Positions 1 through 42,204 of a stretch of DNA of 64,000 nt are shown here, piece by piece. The stretch lies in contig CDROCS010000706.1 in the NCBI GenBank assembly GCA_977020255.1, forward strand, positions 744,001 through 808,000, in the 5' to 3' direction. The position numbers and the translations under genes were made by a program. Source of the stretch: Obrimoposthia wandeli. Taxonomy: Eukaryota. The notes beneath the pieces were generated by a model. That model was not told the DNA's origin and did not search any database. It saw only the letters and a program-made list of their open reading frames with translations. Position 1 is the stretch's first letter. Every line of letters begins with the position of its first letter.

Positions 1-5
1 TCAGT

Positions 6-368
6 TTGAATTTATTAATTAATATATATTCTATTTTGGACGAGATAAGAAAAACCTTAAGAAAACTACTCGGTTCGCGTTTCAATGGAGTCTACAGTCT
101 TGATCACATCCCCTCTTTGACTCGACTAGGTGGATATGTAATCAATACACATTCATCTAATTTGCGTGGTGAACATTGGATTGCAATACATGTTAAAGAA
201 AATGAAATCTTTGTTTTTGACCCCTTTGGGATATATTACCCTTCTAAATTAGTATCTACAGTACTTGACTCTGGAAAGAAAGTACATTTTAGTAAGAAAC
301 ATTATCAAAATGTTTTAACACAGTCATGTGGACAACTCTGTCTGCTTTGGTTAAAGCATAAACAATAG
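6..368 (+). CDS. Adenovirus-type cysteine (maturation) protease of the Polinton, 5'-partial
   Basis: Motifs GVYSLDHIP, INTHSSNLRGEHWIAI (His), VFDPFG (Asp), YQNVLTQSCGQLC (Gln, Cys) in adenain order. The frame is open to the window edge, so the true start is probably upstream. Confidence 0.9.
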   Translation: MNLLINIYSILDEIRKTLRKLLGSRFNGVYSLDHIPSLTRLGGYVINTHSSNLRGEHWIAIHVKENEIFVFDPFGIYYPSKLVSTVLDSGKKVHFSKKHYQNVLTQSCGQLCLLWLKHKQ

Positions 369-405: not shown

Positions 406-915
406 ATGTCTGTTTATTTTATTGATTTTGAAGCTTTTATTGATAATAATACTGAATTTGTAATAAAAGAACTATGTATAATGGATGAGGATGCAATCTT
501 CTATCCTAAACATTATGTTTTTAAAATGCTACCCATATGGGATATGATGAATAGAAAATCAAGAAAAATAAATAGATATCTCATTAAGCATTACCATCGA
601 CTAAAACTAGTTGATGGTAATAGTTATTTCAAGATACAAGAAATAACTGAGAAAATAAAACGTTGTTGTGATGTATCCAAATCAATTTTCTATGTTTTGG
701 ATGAAAATAATGGAGCTAAAATAAAGACAATCAATAAATATTTTCCTGAATTTAGAGTGATAAATTACTCGAAAACATTAAAATAATTAAATCCATCAAA
801 TATCAATTGTCCATATATTAAGCATGGCGAGCATTGTGCATACAAGAAATGCTTTGCAGCTAGTTTGGATTATTTAAATATTAATGAAAATTCAACTACT
901 CACATCTTTCAGTAA
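406..915 (+). pseudogene. Conserved Polinton ORF (DEDD-like N-terminus, C-terminal Cys/His cluster) with one premature stop
   Basis: Starts MSVYFIDFEAF...FVIKELCIMD. TAA at 784-786 is followed in frame by LNPSNINCPYIKHGEHCAYKKC... to TAA at 913-915. Confidence 0.65.
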
Positions 916-1046: not shown

Positions 1047-3540
1047 ATGGTAAGTTTATTGTTATTTTTCTGCTAATTTATTTCTTTCTAGAATTGCAAT
1101 ATGAACAAACAATTATGCTTTGAGGAGAGTCACAAGGAATGTGACGGAAAAATGAAGAGCTACTTTGGACAGACGTTCAACGGACAACAATTCTACGTAT
1201 GTCCAGTATGTCTCTCCGCGGAGGAGATTGATTGGCCGGAGTTTGTGGCGCGTCATCGTGTCCATATTCGTCATTTCCAGCAACGTGGCAAGAAGGCCAT
1301 CTTCCAGGATAGATCTGCTACTATTTCTCAAGATCGGGTTGCTGATCCAGTTGTTGCTGTTTCGCCAATTGCTGCCCCAATTGCTGTTCCAGTATCTACT
1401 CCAATTTCTGTTCCAGTTACTAGTCCAGTTGCTGTTCCAGTTACTAGTCCAGTTGCTTCACCACCATCTGCTGTACCAATGGTTCCAGTTATGCCTCCTC
1501 CAGTTGGTAGGATCCCCGCGCCGTTACCAGCATCTACCCGCAAGAGAAGTGTTATGCCCACTTCAGGTAGCTCTGTTGCGAAGTTTCCCAAAGTTAATGC
1601 TGTTAAGCGTAAGACTAGTCTTCGGGGCACGATTGAGACATTGTCATTAGATGTTTCTAATGACAATCTCATCGATTTACAAGTTCCTGTATCACTTTTG
1701 ACTAGCTTAAGGGACACAGTCAGCAAGTTTGCGACTTGCAAGGTTCAATTCGGGGTGCGTGTTGAATTTTCCAATATTGGAGAAACACGTGCTTGGAATT
1801 TTTCCAATAGAGGGCTCCCCATAGATGAGGGGTTTATAGATGCGGGGGTAGATGGGATCAACAAGAAGATTGAGAATTATTCTCAAAGTAGCAGTAATTG
1901 GGTAGTGAACCGCTTCCTGGAGATTTCGTTTGTTGTGACTAAAACAACAACAATGAACTATCTCCAGGGGAGTAGTTATATACCTACTCCATCTGAGTTA
2001 GCACTCTCACATTGCGTTATCAATGTGCAGAACTCAAACGCTTTTTGCTTCCTTTACAGTATCTTATCTGTACTTTTCTGCGAAGTATTTCGCTCTAATC
2101 CTCATCGGGTTAATCAATATGATGCCTTTTTGAGTCAATTAGTTTTTGATGAGAATGAGATGCCGATGCGTCTATGTATTATACCGCGATTTGAGAGAAA
2201 GAATCCATCTCTCTCAATCAACGTATTTACATTCAATAGGTTCTCTAATGTGCAAACAGATGGGGATATCTTCAAAAATCCCTATGTGGATGTCATTTAC
2301 AGAACCACAAACCCAGACGCTAAGGCAATCAATCTTCTCCTTTTAGAAAATAATGATAATTTTCATTATGTCGGTATTCCTAAACTCAATAGGCTGCTTA
2401 ATTATAGGAACAGAGGTGTATCTAATCGCATCCAGTGTACTTGGTCCCATAAGTGTCTTCATGGATTCCGGAGACCAATAAGTTACGCCAAACACGTTCC
2501 ACTCTGTAGGATGAATTTAGATCATACAACGCTTTATTCAATGCCTACAGAGAAGCATATTGAGTTTAAGGACTTTTCAAAAACGATTTCTCCACCTTTT
2601 GCTGTTTACGCGGACTTTGAGGCTGTGCTACCGCCGCATGGAATCCACCATCAGATTCAGCTTCCAATCTCGGCCAGTATGCTCATGTCTCCCGTTGCAG
2701 CCACGAGAGGGTACACACATGATTACTCGGTCTTTATCGGAGAATCTTGTGTGGTATCCTTTTTGCAGAAATTAGAGGACTTGGCGAAAGAGGTTGTACT
2801 CCCATGGTATAAGAAGCATGCGATCGAGGTGATGCGACAACTCACACAGGAACAGGTATCGAGTTTCAATGCAGCAAGAATCTGTTACCTGTGTAAGAAG
2901 AAACTCACAAAGAAAGTTCGAGATCACGATCACATGACTAGCGAATACCTGGGAGCTGCACATGCAAAATGCAACTTATCAAGGATAATTAATCGATCTT
3001 TTCCCGTCATTTTTCATAATCTGATGGGTTATGACATGCATCACATATTGAAGCACGTATTGTGCACGTTTCCTGACTGGAATGTCTCTGTTATACCTCA
3101 ATCAACAGAGAAATTCCAGGCTATGATGGTGTATATTGGAGGAGTCTGTATACCTTTCATCGATTCACTTCAATTTTTGAACAGCGGACTTGAAAATCTT
3201 GTGGAAAAACCTGGGTGTGACTCCTCTTACACATTCGGTCTTCCCGCAACATCTGGTGGGAGCCAAGGGAATCTTCCCATACGATATGGCAGTATCAGAG
3301 ACTGCTCTTCGCGCAATCACCAGCTTACCGCCAAAGTGGGATGAAAAGATCAAGCCAGTACAATATGAAATGGCAAAGATGGTCTGGACTCAGAGCGGCT
3401 GCTCATCGCTCTGGGACTATATGCTGGTCTATATGAAGATGGACGTCTACCTTCTAGCAGACGTGTTTACAGCATTCCGGACCAAGGCCATTGCTGACGA
3501 TGGATTGGAGCCACTCAATTTATTCTCCATCCCTGGTTTG
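1047..3540 (+). pseudogene. polB: Protein-primed family B DNA polymerase (pPolB): N-terminal/TP region, 3'-5' exonuclease and endonuclease VII-like insert; frameshifted and truncated before the polymerase motifs
   Basis: Motifs GSSYIPTP..CVINVQN...CFLYSILS, YADFEA (ExoI), CYLC..VRDHDH..YLGAAH.KCN (EndoVII), FHNLMGYD (ExoII), KGIFPYD, DVYLLADVF (ExoIII). +1 frameshift near 3204 joins ORF 1101-3344 to 3190-3561. Similarity ends after FSIPGL. Probable first exon is ATG 1047-1049 with intron 1050-1091. Confidence 0.9.
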
Positions 3541-3936
3541 TATTTTACTAATTTTTTCTAATTTTAGACACTAACACATATATATATATATATACATGTA
3601 TAAGAATAAATGTAGTTCTTGTTACTATTGATTACATAAAGATGCAAGTATTTGCAATATAGATGCAGTACGTGACTGTCTTTGTTAGATAGATATAGGA
3701 ACGTTTAAACATGATTTTCAAATTATATAATACTTTATTTTATAAGTAGATAGTTTAATTTAATTTAATTTAAATAAATTTTTCAAATTATATAATACTT
3801 TATTTTATAAGTAGATAATTTAAATAAATTATAAAACACACACACACGAGATGTCTTTTGGTGAATTTGTGTTATTACCACCTTTAGATAAAAATATATA
3901 TAGATTTGAAGTATGTTACTAAAAATAGAATATTTT

Positions 3937-4345
3937 TGACCTCACCGTGACCTTAAAGTACATTGTCCTCATGACGTCATGACCTTAAGTTGACCTTAAA
4001 GTACATTGACCTTAACTTGACCTTAAAGTACATTGACCTTAACTTGACCTTAACTTGACTTGACCTCATGAGGTCATGACCTACATCTTGTCCTCATCGT
4101 GACCTTAAGTTGACCTCATGAGGTCATGTCCTCATCGTGACCTTAAACTGTGCTCAAGGGGGGGTATGCTCAAAATGTCTTTGTTCTGAAAGACTCACAT
4201 CCCCCTACTTGATGTGTGTCTTTCAGGACAAAGACATTTTTTCCTGAGCATAGGGGGGGTCATGACCTCATGAGGTCATGACCTACATCTTGACCTCACC
4301 GTAACCTCAACTTGACCGTAAAAAATTTTGTCCTCAACTTGACCT
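3937..4345. repeat. Subterminal array of 11-bp-period TGACCT units with perfect palindromes
   Basis: I count 20 exact TGACCT/AGGTCA hexamers. CATGACCTCATGAGGTCATG (4261-4280) is a perfect 20-bp palindrome. TGACGTCA at 3972-3979. Confidence 0.9.
4171..4240. repeat. Inverted repeat (about 30-bp arms) formed by two head-to-head terminus-like sequences
   Basis: AAAATGTCTTTGTTCTGAAAGACTCACATC / GATGTGTGTCTTTCAGGACAAAGACATTTT with 2 mismatches, around the loop CCCCTACTT. Confidence 0.85.
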
Positions 4346-4729
4346 GAGCTTGTCCTCAGGGGGGAGGCTTTGTTCCAGAAGTCACACATCTACCTACTAG
4401 TGCATATTGAGTAATAAGAGTGAGAAGTGTAACTTTAATTGCGTCCGTGTTGAGAATCTGACAAATTAGGAATTACGTGGCATAGTTAACTAAACTTTCA
4501 AGACTATGTAAGCAATGGGGTGGAAAATAGGGTAAAGCATGGCAGTCATTTTTCTCTCCCTAGATTGTTTCAGCAATATCTGAGCCTAATTTCGTTTGAG
4601 CTTCCTCGCATAATTGAGTAAAAGGGCTGGGTCACCCTGTGTCAGACTTGACATATCTATATACGTGTATCAACTAAAATTTAGCGAGTCACACTTTTTT
4701 CTTGGTAATACCCATTAAAAAAATTACAG

Positions 4730-6280
4730 TAGTCCACTGGCTGAGTTCATTTATCATTACGGGATCGCTGCTCGTTGGCATCGTACTCATTAGGTACGAT
4801 CGTACTCAGTTTCTTGTCACCATGTCCGTCAGTTGTGTGAACTACTTCGTGGCCATTCTCGTCACCATCTTCTATCTGCTGAAACTACAGCATCACACGT
4901 TACCGCGTCGCAGTATATTTGCAGGTCAGTACAAATATCAGTACCTGATCAAAATGAATGTTGTGCTCTTAAAGCCGGATCAGTTAAAATATAGAGATGA
5001 TAGTACAATAAGACTTATCAATACAGTTAAAACATAATCTTTCAATCGAATTCAAGCATACGATTAAAAATTAAAGATCAGTTCTTACATACAAACATAC
5101 ATTCTGGAAAAGAAAAGTGTGTGCCTTTAATTTATTTTACTATAAGACACAAATACAAAGTCATTAGTACTATTAAAAATGAATAATATGAAAGAAATAT
5201 GAAAATATATCCCAGAGCCATTTGAAAGGATGTTCCATTTCATTTTATAAATTTCTGATCGTTAAGAAAGGTATTTTTAATGAATTTTAACTTTTGTAAG
5301 TTTAAATGAGCTGCTTAATCAAGAATACATTGCGAATCTAATCAAAAATACTGACTTTGAAAAATTGTACTCAATCCACTATAATGATTCTACTCACAGT
5401 GGCAATTTTGTGATTCATAGTATTAATAAAGCATATTTCCCCACAAAACTAACTGAAATCAAACTAGAGAATTGCAAAATGAAGAAGTAAAATGAACAAG
5501 AAATAACGAAATCGAGATTACAGGAAGTACAACTAGAATATTAAATCTGAAAGATATTACGGAAGACTTAAAAATAAACAAAAAATTGCAATTGATCTGA
5601 GTAAATAAATTTTAATATTTTTCGTTACTTTTTGTTGTTTTTTAAACATATTCCAGCAAAATTTTCCTATTTAGGATAAATTCCGATTAATGAAATGTAC
5701 ATTCAGCATATTCATTTTGATTAGATATAGCTTCGACAGTAAATGTAATCATGATTATAATTGAAATTGAAACAGCTCCAATCTTCTTCCAGAACGAAGG
5801 TCATACATGTGGTTCAGCACTGACAGCGTCATTATCTCAATCGGCTTGCTGAGCTACATGGTCAGTGCAATAGCCGATCTACAGATGGTTGTGGAGTGCC
5901 ACATCGGTGTGACGAATTGCACCGACCGCTTCAGTGCTTATCTTTACCCAGTAAGGGCCTCTTTTGAGCTATTACAGGGTATCTCACAAGGTATGCTTCT
6001 GCTCATCTTCACAGAGATAGACAAAACACTCTGGACAATCCTGCCGGACAATTCTACCATCGGCAAACTTCTCAGTCCACTGCATTTTCTGATCCTTTTT
6101 AATATTGTCGCTGGAATCTGCAACATCATCAATATCGACTTTTTATCTCTCCGGCCAAACAATGACATTATTTTGAACCAACTGTTTCGAGAAACCGACT
6201 ACATGCTAACTGTCGCTTGCTGCATTATTTTCAGATTACACAGTGTCTATTTGATTGCAAAATTTATCGTTGTTAAATGA
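4730..6280 (+). CDS. Otopetrin-like multi-pass membrane protein, 3' exons 4730-4924 and 5793-6280
   Basis: Phase-compatible GT/AG junction (GCA G|GT...CAG|AA CGA). Several hydrophobic helices. The C-terminal CCIIFRLHSVYL resembles the otopetrin IFYRFHS signature. 5' exons not located. Confidence 0.55.
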
Positions 6281-6629
6281 CAAAATGCAAACTCTATGAA
6301 AATCTTCTTTTTCTCCCTTTTAATATGGCTTGTAATACATGTTTAAGATTTTTATTTTATAGTATAACCAAATTCAAGGCTCATTTTTTGAATCCGAAAA
6401 ATACTGTATCTATCTGTCATTTCTATGTTTATTTACAATTAGATTATATGCACATTTAGATTAAGAATAAACTACCTATGCACATTGTTATTTGAAAATT
6501 ATGTAAATACAGTTTAAAGCGAAACGTTATTGAATATACAACAAACACAGATTTATTAGATACTAACGTTAAAGACACATTATAACAGATGACACGTTGT
6601 AATACAGGCTTTGTGTTTTATTTAAAAGT

Positions 6630-7518
6630 TTTGTTTTCTGATTATGTGGAGAAAAAAATGGTTAAAACTGAATAACCCAGACAGGCTACTGATGCCACCA
6701 CTGCATATAAAACTGGGTCTAATCAAACTGTTTGTAAAAGCCCTTGATTGTGAGTCTGTAGCATTTGCTCATCTACAAAAACATTTTCCAAAACTATCTA
6801 CAGCAAAAGTAAAGGCTGGCATGTTTGTTGGACCTCAGGTGAGAAAACTAAGAAATTATGAGGATTTCATTACAATGTTGAGTTCTGCTGAAAAAGACGC
6901 TTGGATTGGTGAAAAATGTGGTGAAAACCTTTCTTGGAAATAGAAAGCCTGAGAATTATGACTATTTGGTTGAAATAATGCTCTCTAGTTATCAGCCAAT
7001 TGGATGTCATAGGTCTTTAAAGATGCGTATGTTGCATGCTCTTTTAGACCATTTTGTGTATAATATGGGTTCAATTTCAGAAGAGCAAGGTGAACGTTTT
7101 CACCACGACTTACAAAAGTTTGAAGAACGCTATATTGGTCAGTACTCTGAGAGTGTGATTGGTGATTATATTTGGAGCCTTGAGTGGGAAGTTGAAGATC
7201 CGGTTAACAAAAGAAATTCCAGAAAAACCCAACATTTTTAGACATTTTCAATTTATACATTCTTTGACTATAACTATTATATTTTTTGTAGGTATAATTG
7301 AATAATAATATTAGTTTATGCCTAGTTACAGTTGTTATTTCGTTCAAATTTCCCTTTGTTCGTATAAAGTTTTGCAAGGGTAAATAAAATATATAAATCT
7401 TTATGGTCTGACCCCCAAACTGAACTTTGAGCTGCAAGATTATGATTTTGCAATGTTTTTTCACTTAATGAATCAGGAAATAACAGTTATTTTTCAGAGG
7501 GGAATTTGTTACACTGTG
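6630..7518 (+). mobile_element. Chapaev3-like (CMC/RAG1-related) DNA transposon, 5'-truncated, frameshifted transposase C-terminus plus right end
   Basis: PPLHIKLGLIKLFVKAL...FVGPQVRKL, then SLKMRMLHALLDHF..NMGSISEEQGERFHHD...E.RY.G. Right end ...AATTTGTTACACTGTG followed by TAA, fitting CAC..GTG termini and a TWA target site. Confidence 0.7.
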
Positions 7519-9405
7519 TAATTATCAAGCTCGGACTTCGGTTTGGATTTCAGGAGTAGATTTATTGAATTTTCTCACTTTTGTTTAAATATTTATGGTT
7601 TTACAAATAAAGTAATCCTGTAAAGCATAATTTTAGTGAACTTATATTAATATCATTATAAAAAAAAATTAATATATCCCGTTTTGAAGAAATAAATTAA
7701 AATGAAAGAAACACAAAGGTTATAAGTGTTTATTGTAATAAGAAATTTTTATACAGAAATGAAACGAAAATCATTTATCCATTTAAATCAAGAGGACGAT
7801 TGTCTACAATATCGACGACTGTACTTGTAGCACTCTTTGAAAGAACTCCCTCCTTGTTGAAATCTTCCACATTGTTCTTTTGTGTAGTCCTCCCATGTTT
7901 TCTCAGAATTAATCCAAGTGACCGTGAAGGACGGGCTGTTTCAGCGAAATTCGATCGAAAGGTACTAAATGAATTAAGTTACATACATTGTCTAGACTGC
8001 GGATGAGTAACCTTCAACCCACACCGTTCTTTGACAGGAACACACAATATAACTTGTGAAGGTGAGAAAAATTGTTTTGGTGAATAATTTTTAGTTTTGC
8101 ATGCTATTTGTATTGACACCTGAGTTTAAGAAATGCAATGAAGCTGATGGACGAGGAGGTTTTAATGACATATTTCAGTGAAATAGTTTTTGTTATGATA
8201 AGTATAAATCAGGTTTGTCTTATTTAATGTAAAGAAGTGATAGATTTGAAAGAAAGAAACTTGGAGGGTTACTAAAGAATCCGTCAATCTACAGAATTTA
8301 ATAAAAATTAAGTTTTCATAGGTATGCCATTTTAAATACCTAAAAATAATAATTTTGTTATACAATTTAATGATGATTAATGCATAACTTTACTAAGAAA
8401 ATTGTAAATATACGAATAGTAATATATAGTGTCGGTACTAAATCAAAGGAACAGAGTCCCCGGGAGGGAGTCTCTCTTCCATTGAGTTAGTATTGACACT
8501 ATATGCCTCAAAATATGTTAATATATGATGATTTTTAAATCCATTCAAACAATATTCGAAATCATGCGATAAATTCAATTCATCACATCAGATTAAGTAG
8601 AAAGGCATACATGCAGCAACGAGAGGGAAGAAATAACGACTTTTGTCAAGCTACAGTAGCGTTATCTACAGTGAAGTGCAAAATTACGTACATCGCATAT
8701 TTATCTGAGCTCTTATAACAATCCTATTACATACTATGAAGATGATTGGCTCTGCATTGTCTTTCCTTCGATTCATCAAATACTGAATTTTCTTAGCTGT
8801 TTTTAATGCTCTACGCTTATTTCAGTATTTCTCCCCTTTCTATGTATCTTCAAACAAGCGACTGTGTCCTTATGAAAGCAATAGAGTAGGTTGCGAATGT
8901 TCTTGAACTTTTTAAAGCCAAACAATTTGGCCTGTCATTTGATGGGATGTAAAATGAAGCAGCAGCAGAATTTATGCAAATCTTATCGAGGCACCAAGAA
9001 CAAACAATCGTCAGACCCAGCATTTAAATACCTTCACTGGTACACTGAAAGTACATTATCGATTTATTGTTCAGACTTGATTTCACAGTTGAAAGATCGA
9101 TTGTGCACAGAAGTGCCAAAAGTGAAGGTATAAAATCTTGTGCTTTCCCTGTTAGACAATGTGACACTTGAAATTTGGGGGAAATATAATTCCTCGTAAG
9201 TAGGTGGATGTGTCCGGTCTAATCCACACCCCCCTCCCCCCTGTCCTTTAAAACCGTGCATATGTGTGTAGTGAAATTTCGTGTAGGTGTGTGGAGTGAA
9301 ATTTCACTCCACACACATGCACGGTTTTAAAGGACAAGGGGGTAAGGAACCCCCTCCCTAAAACTTTTTCGCCCCTATCGGCGCGAATGGCTCGGGACTG
9401 ACATT

Positions 9406-9636
9406 GGTCACAGACTAGTCCTGCGATGTAAGGATATCTCGCTCTCATATAGGTCACAGACTAATCCTGCGATGTACGGATATCTCGCTCTCATATAGGT
9501 CACAGACTAGTTCTGCGATGTACAGATATCTCGCTCTCATTTATGTCACACACTAGCCCTGCAATGTACAGATATCTCGCTCTCATATAGGTCACAGACT
9601 AGCCCTGCGATGTACGGATGTCTCGCTCTCACACCA
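9406..9636 (+). repeat. 46-bp tandem repeat (about 5 copies, runs into a gap)
   Basis: Unit GGTCACAGACTAGTCCTGCGATGTACGGATATCTCGCTCTCATATA. Mirrored at 15487-15651. Confidence 0.95.
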
Positions 9637-10056
9637 NNNNNNNNNNNNNNNNNNNNNNNNNNNNNNNNNNNNNNNNNNNNNNNNNNNNNNNNNNNNNNNN
9701 NNNNNNNNNNNNNNNNNNNNNNNNNNNNNNNNNNNNNNNNNNNNNNNNNNNNNNNNNNNNNNNNNNNNNNNNNNNNNNNNNNNNNNNNNNNNNNNNNNNN
9801 NNNNNNNNNNNNNNNNNNNNNNNNNNNNNNNNNNNNNNNNNNNNNNNNNNNNNNNNNNNNNNNNNNNNNNNNNNNNNNNNNNNNNNNNNNNNNNNNNNNN
9901 NNNNNNNNNNNNNNNNNNNNNNNNNNNNNNNNNNNNNNNNNNNNNNNNNNNNNNNNNNNNNNNNNNNNNNNNNNNNNNNNNNNNNNNNNNNNNNNNNNNN
10001 NNNNNNNNNNNNNNNNNNNNNNNNNNNNNNNNNNNNNNNNNNNNNNNNNNNNNNNN

Positions 10057-10200
10057 ACTCCACACCACACCACACCACACCACACCACACCACACCACAC
10101 CACACCACACCATGCCACACCACCGAAACTCCACACCACACCATACCACACCACGCCACACCACCGAAACACCACGCCACACCACAAACAACACCACCGA
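10057..10200 (+). repeat. (CACCA)n pentamer microsatellite
   Basis: Read directly from the sequence. Mirrored as (TGGTG)n at about 15295-15355. Confidence 0.95.
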
Positions 10201-10749
10201 AACACTCCACCTACCGTCCGCCCCTTCGGGGCGGGCTCCATTCTCGTGAAAATAACTACAAAAACATGCGCTACAGTATCACTTTACCTCACAACTATAC
10301 ATGTAAACGACCCGTGTCATACCCAAAACCCTAACATACACCGCACGCCCCTTTGGGGCGGGCTTCATTCTTGATCTACAGGCACGAAAAAACATTACAA
10401 AAAATAAATTATTTGAATAAGACGCAATTTTTTTTGCGCCAAATTTAAAATTTTCAACATGCTTTTTAAACAAAAAAATAAAAAATTTAAAATTGGCTTT
10501 TAAACAAAAAAATTATTTAAAAATTAAAATAAAATTGTTTACAAAATTTTTATAGTTTAAAAATAAAATTTCCAACATAATTTTTTACAACAACTTTTAT
10601 AGTTTAAAAAAATAATTTTACACAGAACTTTTATACTTTAGAATTTTAAACTTAAAAAAAGACGAATTGGGTACAAATATTTATTAAACCAAAGAGAAAA
10701 TTAGGTACAATAAATTTGTGACATACAAATTCAAACATACAAAAAACAA

Positions 10750-11218
10750 TTATTCAAGTGAAAAATCATCTGGATATCTATGATGTCCGTAGACAACTGA
10801 CCGGTTTTTCTCTACCCATTTTCTCTCATCGTCATTGCTACTCAATGCGATCTTACTCATATTTACGGTATAGAACTGATGATTAATTGAACTAATGCGT
10901 TGTTGTTGCACTCGTTCACTAACCCCACTATCATATGCAGCTAAATAATTCGCATGGCGTAGCACAGTCTGCTTAAGGCTAATTCCCTTTGCTCTCATCT
11001 GGGACTTTCCGTCTATAGTTTCTAAGCTATATGATTTGGAGCGTAAAAATACCCATTGCTTATATCTACATTGCTTACTCTCATCCTTAAACTTGCCTAT
11101 CGCAGTATTGGCTAAAGGATGGTTTATAGAAAATTTTGATGTGTCTAATAATCCATCTGAAATCATTGCAGACAACAGTGTAGCTTGCACGTATACATTA
11201 TGACACTTTAGAAAAAAA
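10750..11218 (-). pseudogene. polB: pPolB C-terminal fragment (left arm)
   Basis: FFLKCHNV...LLDTSKF..NHPL...IGKFKDE...LRSKSYS...RAKGIS...SKIALSSNDDER...YGH. This is the thumb region downstream of the YxDTDS motif, which is missing. Confidence 0.85.
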
Positions 11219-14200
11219 TTCTAATTTGGATATAAAAAGTTCGATTTTTAATCATTTTATGTTTATGGATTTTAGAATACATGTTTCGTGTATATTTCAG
11301 AATAATGTAAATTAAGATGCAAAGTTGAATCTTAGATCAAGGATTTTAGTTGACAAATGAATTTACTGTGTAATTTTTCTGAATAATGTAAATTTCGAAT
11401 TGGAAAGTTCGATTTTCAGTCAATTTATAGATTAGAAGATACATTTACTAAGGATTTTCAGAATAATGCAAATTATAATGCAAATAATTGATCATTTTTC
11501 AATGAATTTACCCATATTTCTATAAATTTTCTTTGATTTTAGTTTAAGGACAAAATTACCTTCAGAATAATAAGTTGTATTTACTGACGATTCTTATGTG
11601 CCAGCGCGTCAATAAAGTTTTCATGGTTTCTTANNNNNNNNNNNNNNNNNNNNNNNNNNNNNNNNNNNNNNNNNNNNNNNNNNNNNNNNNNNNNNNNNNN
11701 NNNNNNNNNNNNNNNNNNNNNNNNNNNNNNNNNNNNNNNNNNNNNNNNNNNNNNNNNNNNNNNNNNNNNNNNNNNNNNNNNNNNNNNNNNNNNNNNNNNN
11801 NNNNNNNNNNNNNNNNNNNNNNTTGTTTCTTTAAGTTTTCCTTAATACCTATTGACTTATAAGCAGCTATTTTCAACTATAAAATCAATAATTGGGAATA
11901 TGCCCACTAATCGTTATTACTCAATATCTAACCTAAACCTCTAACTTCTAATACTCTAGTTCTAATATTCTAATTCTAACACTAACATCATTTTCCAAAA
12001 TATATGCGAAAAATTTATAAGAAGATGGTAAAAGTTTGAATAATATCTCTGATTTTGTAAAAATTGTCTTCGTTATGACCGAAATATGAGTAAAATACTT
12101 ATGATTAATTTTTGGTATAACTCGCTTGAAGCACTATAAAGCTGAAATTCAATATGATCGCTTATATCATAATCTTAAATGACCGGAATTTTGATAAAAT
12201 ACGATTTCACTACAGTTTTAGAACAGTAGTCTTATTTCCGTTCTAAACCACCTAAATATCTTCTAACTCACATTAAATTTCCTTTCAAAGTAAAATATAT
12301 CCTATATTTTTTCTTCTGAATCCTACTAACCTTATATACATCGCTTTTATTTTCATTCAATCTAGCTATCTAGGCTATATTTACCAAAACCTCCTAAACA
12401 TCCCTTCTAAACCCTTCAAAGCTTTAATCTGAACCATCTAAACATCATCGTTAAATTTCCCTCTAAATTCATCTAATTTCTTCTTCTGAAACCTCTTGAA
12501 CTCCCTGTTAAATCTCCCTCTAAATTCCTTTAATTTCTTCTGAAACCTCCCCATATAAATTCTCCTCTGAACCAATTTAAGTTATATTTCCTCTTCTGAA
12601 ACCTCTTGAAATATCCGTTAAATCCTCCTTTTATCTCCTTTAAGGTTATATTTTCTTTGGAACCCTTTAATTTCCCCTATGAACCAATTTTAATTTCTTT
12701 TTTCTGAAACTTCCTAAATACTCCTTTTAAATACTTCTCTAAACGCCTTTTAAGGCTATATTTTCTGATACCTCCTAAACATTCATGCTAAATCTTTTCA
12801 AATCTATAATATATCTTCTGAAACCTCTTGAACACTTTTTCAATTTGTCTTTTATAACCATTCTATGCATTAATATTTCTTCTTTAACCTTCTAAATACG
12901 TCGTAAATTTCCTCTTCTATGTAATAAATTATTTTATAAACTTCCTAAATTCCATTCCTAAATCACTTCATAATCCAATCTAGGCTATATTTTTGAGACC
13001 TCCTAAAAGTATCGTTAATTTCTCCTCTGAACCGCTACTTATCTTTCTATGTATTAATTACTCTTCTAGAGAACCTTTTGAACAAATCATGAGTTTCTCT
13101 TCTAAAACTCTATCCATTATTTTCTATTCTTAAACCTTATAAACACTCATGTCATATCTCATCTAAATGTAACAAATCTCATGCATCTTCTTAATTTATC
13201 TTATAGAACCTTTTATGTATATGATGTCTTTACTAAACCGATTTATTTGAAGTAATAAATCGACTGGTTGTTGATGTTTGAAAATAAGTTTCCATAATAT
13301 TGATAACATCAATAAGCTTGTAGAGTTTTGCAAGAATTTTCTTGTTTGATATATCGATCAATGAAAAATTCTGTTTTGAGAATATAGTTATCAATAGACT
13401 CAAGTAATATGAATAAATTATGACTGAGATAAATACATACTCTAAACATTATTGAATAAATTATATCAATAAATGATACTTGAAAATAATTTTAGGTTTA
13501 AATGAATCGAAAGAGAGAATATAATTTAATCCATTTCTAGTCCTGATGTAATAATTTCTAAACAAAATGTTCCAATATAGTATCGATAATTTAATTAATT
13601 ATTTATTACATAGATTAATTTCCTTAAATAAGCTAATCTTCAAACAATATTCTTTGAAACTAATCATTTTTAGTAACAAAACTTTTACAGATTCTTTTAC
13701 AAAAAAACATTTTTAAAAGAAAGTAGAGAACATTTTAGATTAAATGAATTATTTTGAAATTTAATAAAATTCTTAGTTAAAGATGCAGATTAATAATATA
13801 CTCTTGATCGTAAATTGACTAATTGATCAAAGTAATCTCTCTAATTATCCGTATAATTGTCCGTAATAAACTCTCACTTATTGATCATTATATACTCTCT
13901 TCAAATTATATTTTTATTACACGGAGGAATCCTTTAAATATGTTGAAGAGAAATGCAATTAGTGCATCTACCATATAAGAAACCATGAAAACTTTATTGA
14001 CGCGCTGGCACATAAGAATCGTCAGTAAATACAACTTATTATTCTGAAGGTAATTTTGTCCTTAAACTAAAATCAAAGAAAATTTATAGAAATATGGGTA
14101 AATTCATTGAAAAATGATCAATTATTTGCATTATAATTTGCATTATTCTGAAAATCCTTAGTAAATGTATCTTCTAATCTATAAATTGACTGAAAATCGA

Positions 14201-14391
14201 ACTTTCCAATTCGAAATTTACATTATTCAGAAAAATTACACAGTAAATTCATTTGTCAACTAAAATCCTTGATCTAAGATTCAACTTTGCATCTTAATTT
14301 ACATTATTCTGAAATATACACGAAACATGTATTCTAAAATCCATAAACATAAAATGATTAAAAATCGAACTTTTTATATCCAAATTAGAAT

Positions 14392-14861
14392 TTTTTTCTA
14401 AAGTGTCATAATGTATACGTGCAAGCTACACTGTTGTCTGCAATGATTTCAGATGGATTATTAGACACATCAAAATTTTCTATAAACCATCCTTTAGCCA
14501 ATACTGCGATAGGCAAGTTTAAGGATGAGAGTAAGCAATGTAGATATATAAGCAATGGGTATTTTTACGCTCCAAATCATATAGCTTAGAAACTATAGAC
14601 GGAAAGTCCCAGATGAGAGCAAAGGGAATTAGCCTTAAGCAGACTGTGCTACACCATGCGAATTATTTAGCTGCATATGATAGTGGGGTTAGTGAACGAG
14701 TGCAACAACAACGCATTAGTTCAATTAATCATCAGTTCTATACCGTAAATATGAGTAAGATCGCATTGAGTAGCAATGACGATGAGAGAAAATGGGTAGA
14801 GAAAAACCGGTCAGTTGTCTACGGACATCATAGATATCCAGATGATTTTTCACTTGAATAA
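14392..14861 (+). pseudogene. polB: pPolB C-terminal fragment (right arm) with 2-nt frameshift
   Basis: Near-identical reverse complement of 10750-11218, with AGATATATAAGC instead of AGATATAAGC near 14545. Confidence 0.85.
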
Positions 14862-15486
14862 TTGTTTTTTGTATGTTTGAATTTGTATGTCACAAATTTA
14901 TTGTACCTAATTTTCTCTTTGGTTTAATAAATATTTGTACCCAATTCGTCTTTTTCTAAGTTTAAAATTCTAAAGTATAAAAGTTCTGTGTAAAATTATT
15001 TTTTTAAACTATAAAAGTTGTTGTAAAAAATTATGTTGGAAATTTTAAATTTGGCGCAAAAAAAATTGCGTCTTATTCAAATAATTTATTTTTTGTAATG
15101 TTTTTTCGTGCCTGTAGATCAAGAATGAAGCCCGCCCCAAAGGGGCGTGCGGTGTATGTTAGGGTTTTGGGTATGACACGGGTCGTTTACATGTATAGTT
15201 GTGAGGTAAAGTGATACTGTAGCGCATGTTTTTGTAGTTATTTTCACGAGAATGGAGCCCGCCCCAAAGGGGCGGACGGTGGGTGGAGTGTTTCGGTGGT
15301 GTTGTTTGTGGTGTTTCGGTGGTGTGGCGTGGTGTGGTATGGTGTGGTGTGGAGTNNNNNNNNNNNNNNNNNNNNNNNNNNNNNNNNNNNNNNNNNNNNN
15401 NNNNNNNNNNNNNNNNNNNNNNNNNNNNNNNNNNNNNNNNNNNNNNNNNNNNNNNNNNNNNNNNNNNNNNNNNNNNNNNNNNNNNN

Positions 15487-15651
15487 GTACATCGCAGGGC
15501 TAGTCTGTGACCTATATGAGAGCGAGATATCTGTACATCGCAGGACTAGTCTGTGACCTATATGAGAGCGAGATATCCATACATTGCAGGACTAGTCTGT
15601 GACCTATATGAGAGCGAGATATCCGTACATCGCAGGACTAGTCTGTGACCA
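15487..15651 (-). repeat. 46-bp tandem repeat, inverted copy
   Basis: Reverse complement of the 9406-9636 unit. Confidence 0.95.
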
Positions 15652-16873
15652 ATGTCAGTCCCGAGCCCTTCGCACCGACAGGCGCGAAAAATTTGTAGGG
15701 GGGGGGGGTTAACCCCCCATCCTGTCCTTTAAAACCGTGCATGTGTGTGGATGTAATGTCGAAGCTGTATACAAAATTTAAATTAGCCAATCAGCAATGG
15801 TTCAGTCTGTATCTTCTATCTCTAGGGAGCTGTCAAAGTACGTTATAGTCTTTTCCGAAAGATCCCTTTAAATCTAAAGGTGCTTTTGACTATAGATGGT
15901 TCCATTGCTACCATTGAATGAAGTTTTAGCAGTCTTTGGCTTATGTGTGTTGTAGTTTACATAGATATATTTAAAACAGCATTTTAATTATATATTAAAC
16001 GAATCTTTTTAAAAAGGCATTGATGGGTGGCATGTTTAATTTTCTTTGTGCATTCTGTTGGTTAATTATAATTCGGATGGTTTACTTTCATTTCATTGTA
16101 TCATAGTTCAAACAAATATTTGCTACATTTTGACTATGTGCGTTTTATAAACCAATTGCATACTTTTTAAATAAATGTTTGATAAAATCAGTAACTGACA
16201 ATTGAAAGTGCGTAATACTCATTCAGAAACTCCACATAACATCATACATATTTAAGAAATCAACCCATTACACGCAAAAATGAAAAATTCCTATTTCAAA
16301 TACACATAAATCAGCCATTTATAAATGAGAAAGAAAATTTTAAAGATGCCATACTCATTTAATCTAATCGATTGTAATTTAACATTTTCCAAATCTGACT
16401 CGTCGTCGTTGTGATTATTTTCTTTTGTAGCTTGAAGTAAAGTCAAAATGCTTTTTTCAATAAATTTTTCCAACACAATCTAACCATAGTTTCGAATTGA
16501 ATGAATTTGTTCTTTGTTGTATATCTTTGGATTCTCTACTATGAACACAATTAAAAGCAATTCAGATCACAGCTTCAAACTCTGAAGATGACCTTTAAGT
16601 ACGCTTGTCATTCATTCCAGCTAGATTAGGGAATTTATCCCTAGACAAATTCAAGCTATATTCAGAATTTCCTATCCTAATTTTTCATTCTCATATCAGT
16701 TTTTCATGGGGTAAAAATATTTAATAAAAACACTGAAATATTGCCTGAAACATTGTTGCCAGAAACTGTAAAGAGCATTCCCTCGGCGACCAATGAGGAG
16801 CACCAACGGGAGAGTGTTCGTGACAGCGAGTGTGTATATCAGGAGCTGTTTTTGGGGTCTACTGCAGCCAAAG

Positions 16874-19734: not shown

Positions 19735-21903
19735 TTATGTCACTGCTTGATGCATAGTTAGCGACAGCAGCACTCCATAGTCCTCTGTTCTTCTGGCATT
19801 GGTAGCTCTCGATCTTGTTGGCGCATCAGCTGGATTGTGCTCGGTTCGCACAAATTGCACCTTGATCCTTTTTAAAGTAGCCATCATCTGTACAGCTATT
19901 AGAGTCCACCAGTGTTGGACTTTGGCAGGTATTCTCCTATTTCGAATACTCCAAACTAGCGCTAGGTTATCGCATAGGATAATGTCTCCCGTAGTCGCTT
20001 TCCACATAGCTAATAACACTGCTCGTGCTTCTTGCAAATATATATTTTCCTCTTTCAATTTTGCAGTAAGTTCAATCTGAAAAGGTTGCGTCTTGGTTAC
20101 TGCTACTGTAGATTTGGTAGCATCTGTTGCCCAAACTTGTCCTGCTGTCTTTTTCCACTTCCATGTGGCAGCATACTTTTTAAGATTGTAATAACAAATC
20201 TTTCTTAAGTCGGACTTCATATAATTTGCCACATATGGCCACTTGAGCACATTACTTACGTAATTTAGATATCCAATTGCGTCATCAGTGAACTCTTCTT
20301 TTTCTATGATGTCATCTGCAGTGTGCCACTTCTGCTTGCTAATGCTGACCTCCTGTCTTTTGAGATCAATGATCATGCCACAATACTCGATTTTTGCAAT
20401 AGGCTTCAATTGTGATTTCTTCCAGTTAATTTGAAGACCCCATGTCCTGAAAAAGTTAGAGATTTCACTCCACACAGGGGCATTTGGCTTTGCCACGATG
20501 AGAATATCATCAATGTGGACATGTGCCAAGTCAACTATCCATCTATCTTTTAATTGTTGCAAGATTCTCGAGATTGTCCATTGTAGAATGGCTGGGCTTT
20601 GTCGAAGGCCCATTGGAAGACGCGTAAAGCGGTAATACTGATTGTCGTTCCAAAAGTTGGTGAGATGCCTTGCTGCTTGTCTAATTTTTACCTGATAGAA
20701 GGCTCCTTTGAGGTCAATTCTAATGGCCAATCTATCATTAGGCAGAAGCTGTAATTTGTTGGCCAAATTTGGAATTCTCATGTGCAACTGCGGCAAGTGT
20801 GGCGTCAAATGCTTGAAGTCCACAATTAATCTTCTGAGACTAGAATTTGCTTTGGGCACCATTCTCACTTGGGAGCAAAATGGTCCTTTAGTAGACTTTT
20901 CTATGATTCCTGCTTTAAATAGAGCGTGAACACATGCATTGATGTGTTGCTTCTCTTCTGTTGGCACATTATATCTCTTTCTTTGTCTGGAGGCCTTGAT
21001 TGAGGCGAAGGGCGCATAACCCTTGGTAGCCATCATACTCATTCTTCCATCGAGATCTACATCACTATAGTCATCCGGCATCTGAAGGGTCTGAGAAGGC
21101 ATACTATCATAATACTCCTGTTGGAGTTTCTCTTGAGCCATTTTAACTTTGCGGGTTTCATGAAAAGTGATCCAACCACTTGAGTCATTGTTCATGACTT
21201 TTCTGGCTTCAGTTGCTCTTCCTTCTTCTAAAATATTTCTATTACCAGCTTGTGGTAGCGTATTGCCATTGGAATTGAAGTAATCATCTATAACATCTCG
21301 AGTTAGGACTGGTAAAGGTTGTCTATTAAAGACATCGGCCGACATAATACTGACTAACATATAGTCGCGCCACCAGTGAACGTAAAACGGATCACTGTGG
21401 GAGGCTAGCGCCTCGAGTAAACGGCGGGCGTCCAAGGCCTCTGCGCGAGTAGTTACCTCTACCACGTGGGAAAGGTCGAGACTTGGCAGCTGCTGCTGCT
21501 TTCCTGGCTTGATAGCGAGAGATCTCTTCTGGGGTGATATCTGTGATACGAGCAAGGTTTGACGCTTTGGCCTCCGTTGCTGCCCATCCAATGGTGACTG
21601 AGCTAAATAACATTGCTGCTCGCTCGGCGAGGTGCTCCTCGATGGTGAAGTAGTCGTGGAGTTTGAGCAAATCGTGGACACGCAGCAGAGATTCGAACTC
21701 ATGCCACGATCTTCTGTCCTTGTCAAGGAGGAGCTTGCTAAGCTCTGCTCTGCTATCTCCTTCCAAGAGCTCTTGTTTCCGCTGCTGCGGTGTTTCTGCG
21801 CGTGGCAGGTCGTATTGACGTGGTGGCACACTGGCCTTGGCTCTCTGTTCGGTTTCGATCCTGTCAAGTCTTTGCATGATGTCTCGTAACGTAGGTTCGG
21901 CAT
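19735..21903 (-). CDS. Reverse transcriptase-RNase H polyprotein (alternative start ATG 21360)
   Basis: RT: ALFKAGIIEKS...VPK...RLIVDF, IDLKGAFYQV, RLPMGLRQSP, HIDDILI, IEYCGMIID. RNase H: ATDAT, NIYLQEARA, LCDN, HNPADAPTR. Confidence 0.9.
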   Translation of the reverse strand: MPNLRYETSCKDLTGSKPNREPRPVCHHVNTTCHAQKHRSSGNKSSWKEIAEQSLASSSLTRTEDRGMSSNLCCVSTICSNSTTTSPSRSTSPSEQQCYLAQSPLDGQQRRPKRQTLLVSQISPQKRSLAIKPGKQQQLPSLDLSHVVEVTTRAEALDARRLLEALASHSDPFYVHWWRDYMLVSIMSADVFNRQPLPVLTRDVIDDYFNSNGNTLPQAGNRNILEEGRATEARKVMNNDSSGWITFHETRKVKMAQEKLQQEYYDSMPSQTLQMPDDYSDVDLDGRMSMMATKGYAPFASIKASRQRKRYNVPTEEKQHINACVHALFKAGIIEKSTKGPFCSQVRMVPKANSSLRRLIVDFKHLTPHLPQLHMRIPNLANKLQLLPNDRLAIRIDLKGAFYQVKIRQAARHLTNFWNDNQYYRFTRLPMGLRQSPAILQWTISRILQQLKDRWIVDLAHVHIDDILIVAKPNAPVWSEISNFFRTWGLQINWKKSQLKPIAKIEYCGMIIDLKRQEVSISKQKWHTADDIIEKEEFTDDAIGYLNYVSNVLKWPYVANYMKSDLRKICYYNLKKYAATWKWKKTAGQVWATDATKSTVAVTKTQPFQIELTAKLKEENIYLQEARAVLLAMWKATTGDIILCDNLALVWSIRNRRIPAKVQHWWTLIAVQMMATLKRIKVQFVRTEHNPADAPTRSRATNARRTEDYGVLLSLTMHQAVT

Positions 21904-22087
21904 CTTCTGGCATATGGGATTGTTGCACTGAATTTTCGTAATCCACCGACTTTGATCTCAGGTTATAACGTTCCGTCTTCTCGAATTGCAATTCTTCTTC
22001 ACTAAAATACTCAGGGTCGTCAGTTATTTCGGACCACGACAGAGGTTTCTGTGCTGATTTATATGATGAGTATAGGTCTGTGAACAA
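21392..22087 (-). CDS. Core/gag-like protein with Arg/Gly-rich basic C-terminal tail
   Basis: Helical body with GWAA motif and tail SRPFPRGRGNYSRRGLGRPPFTRG. First ATG at 21913, but the frame is open upstream to about 22206. Confidence 0.65.
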   Translation of the reverse strand: MFTDLYSSYKSAQKPLSWSEITDDPEYFSEEELQFEKTERYNLRSKSVDYENSVQQSHMPEDAEPTLRDIMQRLDRIETEQRAKASVPPRQYDLPRAETPQQRKQELLEGDSRAELSKLLLDKDRRSWHEFESLLRVHDLLKLHDYFTIEEHLAERAAMLFSSVTIGWAATEAKASNLARITDITPEEISRYQARKAAAAAKSRPFPRGRGNYSRRGLGRPPFTRGASLPQ

Positions 22088-22964
22088 ATCGAGGCCGTCT
22101 TCTTCGTCTTCTTGGAAATATTTACCTTGCGACGTGTTGAGGGCTATCCAGGTACTCGCACAAGTGTGAGTAAGTAGATTATCTAAATCTCCTCTTCGTG
22201 GTAATATTTACCAAAAAATAACTTCAAATTTTATAAAAAAACTTTGAAATTTAGAAAAAATTATCTTAATTTTACAAAATAAGACTGGCTATTTTATTCA
22301 GTTATAAACTGCTGATGTACAATAACTAATTTTAGACTGACTATCGATTTATAACTTTAAAATATTTCTTTGTAAATTTTTACGAATATTTAAAATTTCC
22401 ATAAACGAACTGCTATGTTTTGAATCTTTACTTCATTTCTAGTATCTATTAATTTATTTTAAAATTTTCATTTTTATACATCAGATTTTTAATGAACATA
22501 AATATATCTTTGTCCATAGTTCATAAAGTTCACTGGCAACTCTATTAATCATTTTGCATCTTTTAGTTGCACAATTTATATTTTGTAAATAATGATATCG
22601 ACCCAATACAACATAAACTGTTGGGATCCTTGATATTGATATTAGACTTTCCGACACAATAACTTCCATTTGAATAATTTCTAAAATTCAAGTGATTTTT
22701 AAAATATTAGCCATTGATATAGTCACTATATTATAGTGGATCTATATCTAAATATTTACTGAAAAACTTTCTTCTCCAATTTTAAAAAGAAGTTTCTTCT
22801 ACAATATTTTGATAGCTCATACTTTAAGTAGCACCAAAAACAACATTTTAATTTAATAATATACGTGTACTTTTAAACAAAAGTAGACGATTTAATTTAA
22901 ATAACTTTTGATTTTCTATATGATTTACATACGTTTATTTAAAAATAATAGAAAATTATACAAA

Positions 22965-24249: not shown

Positions 24250-25396
24250 GTGATATTGCATTAAAGTGCATTTATGTCAAAAAGTACATTATGGAACGAT
24301 TGGCTAACATTTGTAATTGACAAATTTCGAATTATGCCTTATGGAGAGTACTTGGATGTTACTTCAGTCATTACAACAGTCCATTTATATTGAAGTTGTA
24401 TTTGATTCTCCCAATCAACAACTTAATTTGTAGAATTATTATTTGGTTGAGTTTTCTCACAACCGTTTGACGGTAAAATCAAGTAAAGGCATAGGTCTGA
24501 TCCGAATGAATCCCCGATAGTGTAGAATAACCATACCACTTTACTAGATTTCGTTTATCTTTATGACATACTTTAAATCTAATGATATTTTGAATTTTAA
24601 ATATCTGAGGTTCGTCAATAACTTGTAATTCTGCTTCATAGTTATGTAATAATAAACTCAAAATATCCTATTTGCAATAATTTGTTTAGAATTTCATATT
24701 TAAACCTGTATAATATAAATTGCATTGTGGAATCTAACTCTTGAATCGTGTCTATGATAGAAAACATAATTTAAAAATTTACCAGTCATGATTTCATATT
24801 CAAAATCAATAATAAAATACATTGATTTTTATTTTGAATGAACATGTAGAGATTTTTTGTTGTTGTGTTGTTTCATAGGTTTATCAAGTCAAAGACAATT
24901 TGATAATATACCTGGACAATATATACAAGTTTCCACATCATATTTTATTAAAGACGAAAGCCTGAAAAATCCTGACTTTGCTAATGATACTAATCCAACG
25001 TAATTTTAACGTAATGATACTAGTCTAGTCTATTCGTCTTTAGAATCTCTAAATCTTTAAAACGAAAATAAATTTCTTTCCCTGAAAAATTATACAAAAA
25101 TCTTATTAATTTATATTTCATCTACACTATTATCACAAAAAATAAACACCGCTAAAAAACGTTTTTTATACTATCAGAAGAAAGTATGGTTTTTGATCAT
25201 TGAGAGGCATTATTTCAATTTTTATTTATTTTTATTTATGTCCTTTTTATTTATTTTTTTAATTCTCCTCTTTTTGGATACTCACATGCACATAATTTCA
25301 CTTTAGACACATATACACATGCACAAAATTCATTCTCATATGTACGGTTTTAAAAGACTGACAGGGAGCAGATTAGATTAGCTACATCCACCTACT
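24250..25396 (-). mobile_element. Degenerate Polinton relic C (terminus, integrase chromodomain end, start of next ORF)
   Basis: Terminus AGTAGGTGGATGT on minus at 25396, homologous to 9199. YEAELQVIDEPQIFKIQNII...LVKWYGY resembles the Polinton integrase C-terminus. It is followed by NNSTN*VVDWENQIQLQYKWTVVMTE, similar to a conserved Polinton structural ORF. Confidence 0.55.
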
Positions 25397-28579: not shown

Positions 28580-30013
28580 AAACTTCTGTAGCCTTCAGTG
28601 ACTTTGTATGAAATAAACACTATTTAAATAGAGTATTCAGTCGTTTATTTCACTCTGTCTCTCCTTTCCTTTTTTAGTTGGATGAAATATTTCATAACAT
28701 ATCATTTTGTTTTCAATAATACAGATATCACTATGATGTTTAGCAAATATAATCGATAGCATAACCATGTTAAGACAGATAAAGGCATGTACCCCCTTAA
28801 ATAATGGCAATAGTCAATTTATAAATTGATTACATTAAATAATAATTTTTAAACCAAATTTGCTTAACAATATCTGTGAAAGAGTAAATATCTAAAATGA
28901 AGTTCTACTACAGTTGTTTCTGCGTTCATCGTCGAAATAAAACACAAAAATGACCCCACAATTTTTATTAAATAAAAACTCACGCACGCTGGGTTTTTTT
29001 CTTCTTTCACAACAATTCAAATTTTCACCCTATTTTTTCAATTCATTCTTTTAAACAAAATCTATCTTTTTTGTCACTTCTTTTAACATAATTATTATTA
29101 TTATGTTAACACACGCACACAACTCTAAAAACATCCGATCTCATGTCCGAACATTCCCCTTCCCCTTGTTCAAACCCGATCTCCTGGTTTATCAACCTAT
29201 TCTGTTCACTCGCTTCCACCTTCAACGGACACATCTTTACTACCGGTCTCACACACTCATTCCCTCCTACATTTACTACACAGCTCCTGACTTCTGCTTA
29301 CTTATTCGCTCTTAATTCCCATATTTTCCCGACAAGCCAGACTCCCTGCTCATTCTTCTTGTCTAGTACCCACACAAGTTGTCCCTCACTCAACGGGTTT
29401 TCTTTTCGTTTCCACTTACTTCTCCTAATCCAGGTGGGTATCATCTCACTCATCCATCTTTTCCACACATGACTAACGATCTCTTGTATTCTACACCACC
29501 GATGGCCGAGTTCTCCGTCCCCCATTAATGCTGTCTCATTCCCCAAACCTTCTTCTCTTCCACTCACCATGAAATCTTTTGGTCTTAACGGTAATTCTTC
29601 CTTGCTATATGCAGACCGAAAAGTGATTAGTCGAGAGCTCAGCAGTTCCTCAACTTCAACAAATACTGCTCTCAGCTCTTCATCACTTATATCAGAATTT
29701 ATCAACACCATCCCAATCGCTTCTTAGCGCTCTTCATCAAACTTTCAAACACTCCCCCAAAGTGTGGCGCGGCTGGTGGGTTAAATATCCAACGAATCTC
29801 TTCCCGTTCCAACTGCTTTCTCATACTGTAGTCGTCAATTACAATTTCACTTTTTACGTTAGCTGTCCCTTGAAAGTTTGTGCCGTTGTCGGAAATAACC
29901 AACTGCAGCCTACTCCGTTTTCCCATAAATCTCTTTAAAACCCTTATAAACCCGTCCAACTCTAAATTCCAAGCCATCTATAGATGCACCGCCCGTGTTT
30001 GTAAGCATGTAAA

Positions 30014-41870: not shown

Positions 41871-42204
41871 AAAAGATAGAGAGCATTTGTTATAAAAAAA
41901 ATAATAAAATTATAATATTAAAATTTTACAAATTTATTATAAAGGCTAATTTCTTTATAATTTTAAAAAGAAAAAATCAGCTTTAATAGTTAATTGTAGT
42001 GTTTTTTAAACATGCCCGTTTGATGTGTATTCTGAAATGTTTAATAATATTACAGTTTCTTACTGCTAATGACAAACTATTGCTATACTTATATGTATCA
42101 ACGTGGTAAAATATTCTCTCTTTGATTATATCTTTGAAATGCTAATATTCGATTAAAGACAATACTTCTAAAATTAATCGAAGCTTGATTTTTACATTCT
42201 AGAT

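Follow-up and report, generated by a model that had tools for sequence, protein, structure and literature searches.

Polinton/Maverick elements carry the end motif (AGT)2//(ACT)2, their TIRs have a mean length of 402 bp, and Polinton particles have not been observed (PMC8097293). The parts of that paper that deal with TIRs, promoters and tandem repeats leave factor-binding arrays unmentioned. How the transcription of animal Polintons is controlled is a question that end promoters using host factors would address. Viral analogues of such control regions are the adenovirus ITR, the cytomegalovirus MIE enhancer and the parvovirus hairpins. The enhancers of hepatitis B virus use host receptors and CREB (PMC7077322). 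Receptor sites and CREs in viruses are already known, and a dense array at Polinton ends that varies with the host lineage is new as far as we searched. No paper describing receptor-site arrays at Polinton ends was found in the full-text literature, which covered few subscription papers and no Repbase Reports.

We analysed a stretch of 64,000 nucleotides from Obrimoposthia wandeli (the window), in which an array of TGACCT/AGGTCA hexamers lies at 3937..4345. The array is the right terminal region of a defective Polinton (element 1) and lies 40-460 bp inside the right end of this element at 4398. The initial annotation had assigned it to a Polinton terminal region, and the protease and pPolB upstream, together with the end motif at 4398, bear this out. 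Thirteen of the last 14 bases at 4398 match the left end of a second element (element 2, at 9199), the end motif is also common to a third relic end at 25396, and 5 of 6 bases agree with the published end motif. Like the Polinton/Maverick TIRs treated in the relevant parts of PMC8097293, element 1 has an AGT-type end, non-coding DNA spanning a few hundred bases at its terminus, and pPolB and protease genes, whereas its end reads AGTAGG, not AGTAGT. Element 1 extends past the window start, and the window does not include its left end or its target-site duplication.

A pPolB-alignment scan of genome contigs yielded 49 loci (L001-L049), all in MAG assemblies. Bacterial and archaeal MAG assemblies were found to contain contigs with eukaryote-type Polinton polymerases, some with introns and probably mis-binned, and we regard most of the DNA in the 49 loci as coming from eukaryotic elements that were binned with prokaryotes. 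In element 1, an adenain-type protease on the plus strand (3..368), open at the window start, matched Peptidase_C5 at E 4.4e-4, below the Pfam cut-off. The same segment was matched by tblastn from the L010 protease (E 4e-22), which itself matched Peptidase_C5 at E 1.3e-7. It is followed by a small conserved Polinton ORF of 126 aa (406..786, +) with no Pfam family and a match to an L010 ORF (E 1e-21). The pPolB (1101..3560, +) carries an endonuclease-VII-like insert, and its matches to DNA_pol_B_2 (E 5.9e-4) and Endonuclease_7 (E 0.025) are both weak. This gene is broken: the frame changes in 3170-3340, the sequence is cut off near 3560, the polymerase half is missing, and only the N-terminal two thirds, residues 77-822 of P0001 (1286 residues), are spanned. 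Its best matches, mostly full-length pPolBs, are 42-45% identical. The polymerase would be Alpha-type by the PF03175 criterion (described in part of PMC8502044), for which the relative P0004 scores E 2.9e-28. The region 931-1100 is promoter-like for pPolB itself, with CCAAT at 966 and TATATAA at 993, and contains no receptor sites; a possible ATG-only first exon is followed by a 42-bp intron (1050-1091). The rve integrase and other ORFs of L017 gave no tblastn match within the window.

Read outward, the non-coding part of element 1 consists of an AT-rich spacer, array A, G7, a hairpin, G7, array B, G6 and the terminal 34 bp. The spacer (3561..3936, unstranded) contains a 65-bp duplication (3704-3830). 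A TATA-like run on the minus strand (3890-3903), about 33 bp inside the array, is a weak call in AT-rich DNA, and no ORF of 50 aa lies downstream of this inward run in element 1. Array A (3937..4157, -) is made of inward TRAGGWCA octamers with 11- and 16-bp periods, with ER4 pairs at 4061 and 4111 and an IR0 pair at 4071. The CRE/half-site composite CATGACGTCATGACCTT (3970..3986, +) has an exact 17-bp match, twice, in locus L030. Array B (4257..4358, -) is a duplicate of 4061-4162 with 79% identity over 102 bp, and its perfect 26-bp palindrome at 4258-4283 has the arrangement IR0-ER4-IR0. The G6 run and right terminus (4359..4398, -) read AGTAGGTAG inward.

Between the two arrays, the G7-hairpin-G7 segment (4158..4259, unstranded) contains an 88-bp hairpin (4165-4252) in which 30 bp of arms are 93% complementary; the fold of 4140-4420 gave z = -7.0. 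The initial annotation had overlooked this hairpin and also an inner sequence resembling the terminus (to 4209), in which the left arm and loop of the hairpin end. The right arm is an inverted copy of this inner sequence and, likewise inverted, matches the true end. No Rfam model matched at gathering score, and the 9 matches at E up to 1 were all miRNA models far below their cut-offs. The hairpin of element 2 folded with z = -11.2, and CCTAC, part of the end motif, lies in the loop of both window hairpins. Inner inverted terminus-like copies are found at 4165-4252 and 9236-9342 in the window and at 172-210 and 575-617 in L030. The hairpin with its inner copy of the terminus has counterparts in element 2 and L030 and suggests that template switching or fold-back takes place at the ends; the inner copies may reflect fold-back replication, by which the array could be flipped.

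By direct count the array holds 17 TGACCT and 3 AGGTCA, 20 exact hexamers in all, with AGGTCATGACCT at 4071 and 4273, TGACCTCATGAGGTCA at 4061, 4111 and 4263 and a single TGACGTCA at 3972, and these counts and positions agree with those given originally. The hexamers are also enriched over shuffled sequence: in 5000 dinucleotide shuffles of the array the mean was 0.69 hexamers and the maximum 5. Outside the array the window has 20 TGACCT/AGGTCA hexamers per ~63 kb, and a scan of the window at 409 bp turned up no further hexamer, among those with two or more G/C and at least three different bases, at the density of the array. TRF and repeat scans identified duplications of 11, 16, 27 and 202 bp, and the copies are not independent. 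Because the copies are products of duplication, the shuffle test demonstrates a repeat, not a function. No second copy of the array was found in the window, and 3930-4400 had no match in the phage and plasmid collections.

Twenty-five plus-strand units were listed by hand; of the 24 intervals between them, 12 measure 11 bp and 9 measure 16 bp. The complete set of array pairs with gaps up to 12 comprises DR5 (nine), DR10 (nine), DR6 (two), ER4 (three), IR0 (four), IR11 (one) and IR12 (two); at gaps of 0-12 there was no DR4, DR1, DR2, IR1 or IR3. The 5-nt spacer and 11-bp period of the original description are thus real features of the array. Positions 1-6 of the units are conserved except for T/A at position 3, a pattern biased by the choice of units. 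Position 7 is C/T in 22 units, position 8 is A in 23 (unbiased, though inflated by shared descent), and positions 9-11 are variable. This conservation at positions 1-8 indicates that the array unit is the octamer TGWCCTYA (TRAGGWCA), which is present in 22 of the 27 core sites of the array. Elsewhere in the window, 6 of 38 TGWCCT sites have the octamer extension, and the TGTCCT variant within the array always keeps the CA extension.

The initial annotation had interpreted the DR5 pairs as a retinoic-acid-type element. This interpretation was not supported: the window sites fit a TR octamer with ER4 and IR0, and the gaps of the related L030 array are irregular, none being 5. TR half-sites tolerate A at the W position, and the window array has the extended half-site TRAGG(T/A)CA together with IR0 and ER4, and lacks DR4. 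All ten bases of the TRANSFAC T3R_01 thyroid-receptor consensus, TRAGGTCACG (from a table in PMC9145723), are matched by 3 array sites. By SELEX, THRA prefers IR0 and ER4 and THRB prefers DR4 (from part of PMC10345098). Flatworms possess TRs, and Schistosoma TRa bound half-site, DR0-5 and Pal0 probes as monomer/homodimer without spacing preference; Schistosoma RXR1 (SmRXR1) also shifts such probes (from part of PMC2045677). The octamer, the ER4/IR0 pairs and the binding by Schistosoma TRa make a TR-type receptor the best candidate, and from the motifs we would give TR in particular an even chance of being the binder of the window array. RXR or COUP-TF on IR0 is possible. We know of no established ligand for the TR of this invertebrate. 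Against TR, DR4 is missing from the array, though in mammalian TR-bound chromatin it is the enriched arrangement and ER6 and IR0 are not enriched, according to the part of PMC9249314 that also gives the half-site form NNRGGNCA. The FTZ-F1/NR5A motif YCAAGGYCR fits 0 of the 27 core sites in the window, and none fits NR4A.

A dense array was found in one of the 49 loci, L030, a Polinton of beetle type; a candidate end is visible in only 7 of them. The L030 array contains 11 exact TGACCT in 420 bp (3000 shuffles: mean 0.75, maximum 5) and lies between AGTAGT (172) and a TATA box located ~80 bp before the first pPolB exon; its two CREs are followed by the TATA box and the pPolB ATG. The L030 pPolB is 28% identical to the window pPolB, its best named match is Sitophilus (69%), and in a quick tree of 39 rows it fell in an insect clade far from the window pPolB. 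The two arrays matched by blastn at 63 of 81 bases (E 4e-8) and have the exact 17-mer in common (L030 positions 240 and 431), a shared length attained in 2 of 3000 spacer-shuffled controls. The initial annotation had proposed to compare hexamer with spacer conservation among copies. In this comparison, confined to the internal duplicates and L030, hexamer columns were better conserved than spacer columns between window and L030 (p 0.013 and 0.0003), whereas tests within the window were mixed (p 0.15/0.006 and 0.06/0.29) and partly circular, as the units were picked by their hexamer. The proposal of host nuclear-receptor and CRE sites was therefore supported as to the half-sites and the CRE composite, which are shared with a distant element while the spacers diverge, and not as to the DR5 type.

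Ten of the 14 L030 sites fit the FTZ-F1/NR5A motif YCAAGGYCR (given in part of PMC7239656). Their gaps are all different, and TRF did not report the array as a tandem repeat. ERR is an alternative receptor for TCAAGGTCA. A similar arrangement was seen by eye at the end of Polinton-2_TC of Tribolium, with 6 exact and 2 near YCAAGGYCR sites in ~230 bases; both forms allowed by this motif, GAC and GGC, are represented, and no CRE was seen in its last 270 bases. Like the window, Polinton-2_TC and L030 have extended AGGTCA-type sites clustered at most ~450 bp from an AGTAG end, and L030 also shares with it the 17-bp CRE composite and an inverted terminus-like sequence inside the array. Unlike the window, both have FTZ-F1-type sites (YCAAGGYCR, not TRAGGWCA), irregular spacing and no ER4. 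The likeness between window and L030 may be by descent or by convergence; convergence would be easy because the CRE is one base from the AGGTCA of the ER4+IR0 module. In L030 the module is directed toward the TATA, in the window away from the putative one, and fold-back or template switching could, we infer, be the cause of this opposite orientation.

Eleven hand-picked candidate ends were surveyed, 4 in the window and 7 in the loci, the latter called by hexamer in non-coding DNA; some hosts of the loci may be protists. Dense arrays were present in 2 ends, 1-3 exact half-sites in 4 and none in 5. The CRE occurred in 3 of the 11 ends and was absent in 8; of 625 background windows taken from the loci, 5 contained it. 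The count of TGACGTCA is 1 in the window, 2 in L030, 2 in L017, 3 in Polinton-2_NV and 3 in Polinton-2A_NV. The exact 17-bp match in L030 and the CREs in other ends speak against the window CRE being a chance one-base variant. The end of L017 (39-300), a locus with pPolB and an rve integrase, contains AGTAGT, C13, an AP-1 site, one TCAAGGTCA, TATA and two CREs; here TCAAGGTCA overlaps an E-box. A C-run lies 30-46 bases from the end in 5 of the 11 candidate ends.

Among the 12 Polinton records of the PMC8504770 supplement, the readable ends are those of 2_TC (3'), 2_NV (both) and 2A_NV (5'). In the Nematostella elements Polinton-2_NV and 2A_NV we saw by eye CCAAT boxes, a TATA-like box and, in each of the two, three perfect CREs. 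Their terminal regions resemble the window in the perfect CREs and the inward TATA-like box, and differ in having CCAAT boxes in place of exact AGGTCA half-sites, of which none was seen by eye. A TGACCTTGA/TCAAGGTC pair is also found in this supplement in a section on a DNA transposon that is not a Polinton. Other Polinton loci have unrelated tandem repeats in their non-coding parts, the inverted repeat of L012 has no array, and L034, with the second-highest relaxed motif density (8), proved to be a coding repeat.

Element 2 (9199-15751) belongs to the same pPolB subfamily and the same genome. It is a palindromic defective form with inverted arms of ~2.4 kb. Of pPolB, each arm retains no more than the final 150 codons, in outward orientation; (CCACA)n and a 46-bp repeat are also present, a hairpin with 45-bp arms lies at the left end, and the right end is cut at 15751. 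The 46-bp repeat has one TAGGTCA per unit, and element 2 has no TR octamer and no CRE. For that repeated TAGGTCA, element 2 is only partly a clean negative control. The third, decayed Polinton end (25283-25396) resembles element 2, and ~900 bp inside it (24348-24488) there is a weak protein fragment matching an L010 ORF, possibly a minor capsid protein.

Beyond the Polinton remains, the window contains two phase-compatible exons of a host gene for a multi-pass membrane protein (~4730-4924 and 5792-6280, +). From one short motif this protein may be otopetrin-like, an identity that neither Pfam nor Atlas confirmed. A host COQ4 exon (a 77-residue piece) has its best named matches in trematodes (73-77%), with Macrostomum and Artemia at 71%; from this single piece the host is probably a flatworm. 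Further mobile-element relics lie at 6626-7238, 19735-22207 and 29300-34700: a transposase fragment that has no Pfam match and is presumably Chapaev-like, a reverse-transcriptase ORF (RVT_1, E 6e-19) and pieces that we take from their translation to be BEL/Pao-like. Satellite arrays with 29-, 76- and 140-bp units occupy 47970-49266, 63300-64000 and 41451-41873.

The array at the element 1 terminus is probably a promoter/enhancer of the Polinton terminal region that would be bound by host nuclear receptors and CREB/ATF, a reading drawn from the motifs, their end position and their recurrence in distant Polintons. Its terminal position also suits an element-encoded protein, in which case the zinc fingers at the pPolB N terminus, the terminal protein or the integrase would bind the repeats at a replication origin, and their resemblance to receptor sites would be incidental. 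The array is at most 460 bp from the terminus, a strong hairpin and an inner copy resembling the terminus lie next to it, inverted terminus-like sequences flank the arrays of both window and L030, and C2H2 fingers are present in the L030 and L017 pPolBs. We consider such a binder unlikely: the core hexamer and 17-bp module are kept between elements whose pPolBs share only 28% identity, the flanks change to two published host receptor motifs, down to the C/T degeneracy of YCAAGGYCR, and the CRE, CCAAT and TATA of other ends are plain host promoter parts. NFI and Oct-1 assist at adenovirus origins, and host receptors might likewise bind to aid replication initiation or recombination at the end, not transcription. 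The position at the very end, the helical phasing of 11 + 16 bp and the missing ORF after the inward TATA-like run of element 1 are in keeping with that role. It is nonetheless improbable, given that the L030 array stands directly before TATA and the pPolB start and that the L017 and Nematostella ends have promoter anatomy. The initial annotation had left the choice between transcription and a replication origin; a promoter/enhancer is the better supported because the L030, L017 and Nematostella clusters adjoin a TATA near the first gene, and the origin is less supported. The two roles could hold together.

A neutral minisatellite, in which slippage near the end amplified a seed with a chance TGACCT, would account for the clear duplications of 11, 16, 27 and 202 bp, and the unrelated tandem repeats of other Polinton loci and the different repeat of element 2 are in line with it. 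The same core at the same place in three unrelated Polintons (window, L030 and Polinton-2_TC) makes this unlikely, as does L030, where the motif is kept although the gaps are irregular and no tandem repeat is reported. That the host membrane-protein gene next to element 1 has co-opted the array as an enhancer, a possibility which the initial annotation had also raised, is very improbable. The first visible exon is ~330 bp from the element 1 end; that exon begins at a splice acceptor, however, so element 1 may be intronic, and the same design in other Polintons predates this insertion.

Under the preferred promoter/enhancer reading, host nuclear receptors would load on the repeated extended half-sites (octamers) and CREB/ATF on the CRE, and jointly they would drive inward transcription of the element genes when and where these factors are active. 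Placed in the left repeat, this sequence would drive the first gene. The receptor sites may have been amplified by slippage under selection in some lineages, and ligand control of the transcriptional effect would be a further expectation. In defective element 1 the array may now be idle. Against this reading, no more than 2 of the 11 candidate ends and 1 of the 49 loci have a dense array, the copies arose by tandem duplication, and a single family copy was examined. The absence of TR octamers and CRE from element 2, the mixed tests within the window, the missing DR4, the opposite orientation of the module in L030 and the TGACCTTGA/TCAAGGTC pair outside Polintons also count against it. The sites fit a TR-type protein in this probable flatworm and FTZ-F1/NR5A in beetle Polintons. 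More tentatively, and with the chances somewhat against it, animal Polintons may share a conserved switch at their termini, composed of end motif, C-run, half-sites, CRE and TATA, whose receptor specificity is re-tuned per host lineage.

If Polinton ends are host-factor promoters with lineage-tuned arrays, the host factor, tissue and stage would be predictable for each family, and each insertion would drop a dense cluster of receptor sites beside host genes. The array could serve as a natural probe of invertebrate TR binding. Should the lineage-tuned switch be true, Polinton expression and mobilisation would be timed by the endocrine or developmental state of the host, candidate triggers would be at hand for endogenous viruses with unexplained activation, and the little-understood flatworm TR would have a natural high-density target.

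Among known systems, thyroid hormone response elements (TRpal/IR0, ER4 and the TRAGGTCA monomer) share the octamer, IR0 and ER4 with the window array, which differs in having no DR4, in its 22 sites in 420 bp and in its place in an invertebrate mobile element. Hepatitis B virus, as described in part of PMC7077322, resembles the window in that the control region of a small DNA virus genome contains a CRE together with receptor half-sites. Viral enhancers carry a few sites, whereas those of the window array are tandemly amplified in the terminus of an integrated element and apparently vary with the host lineage.
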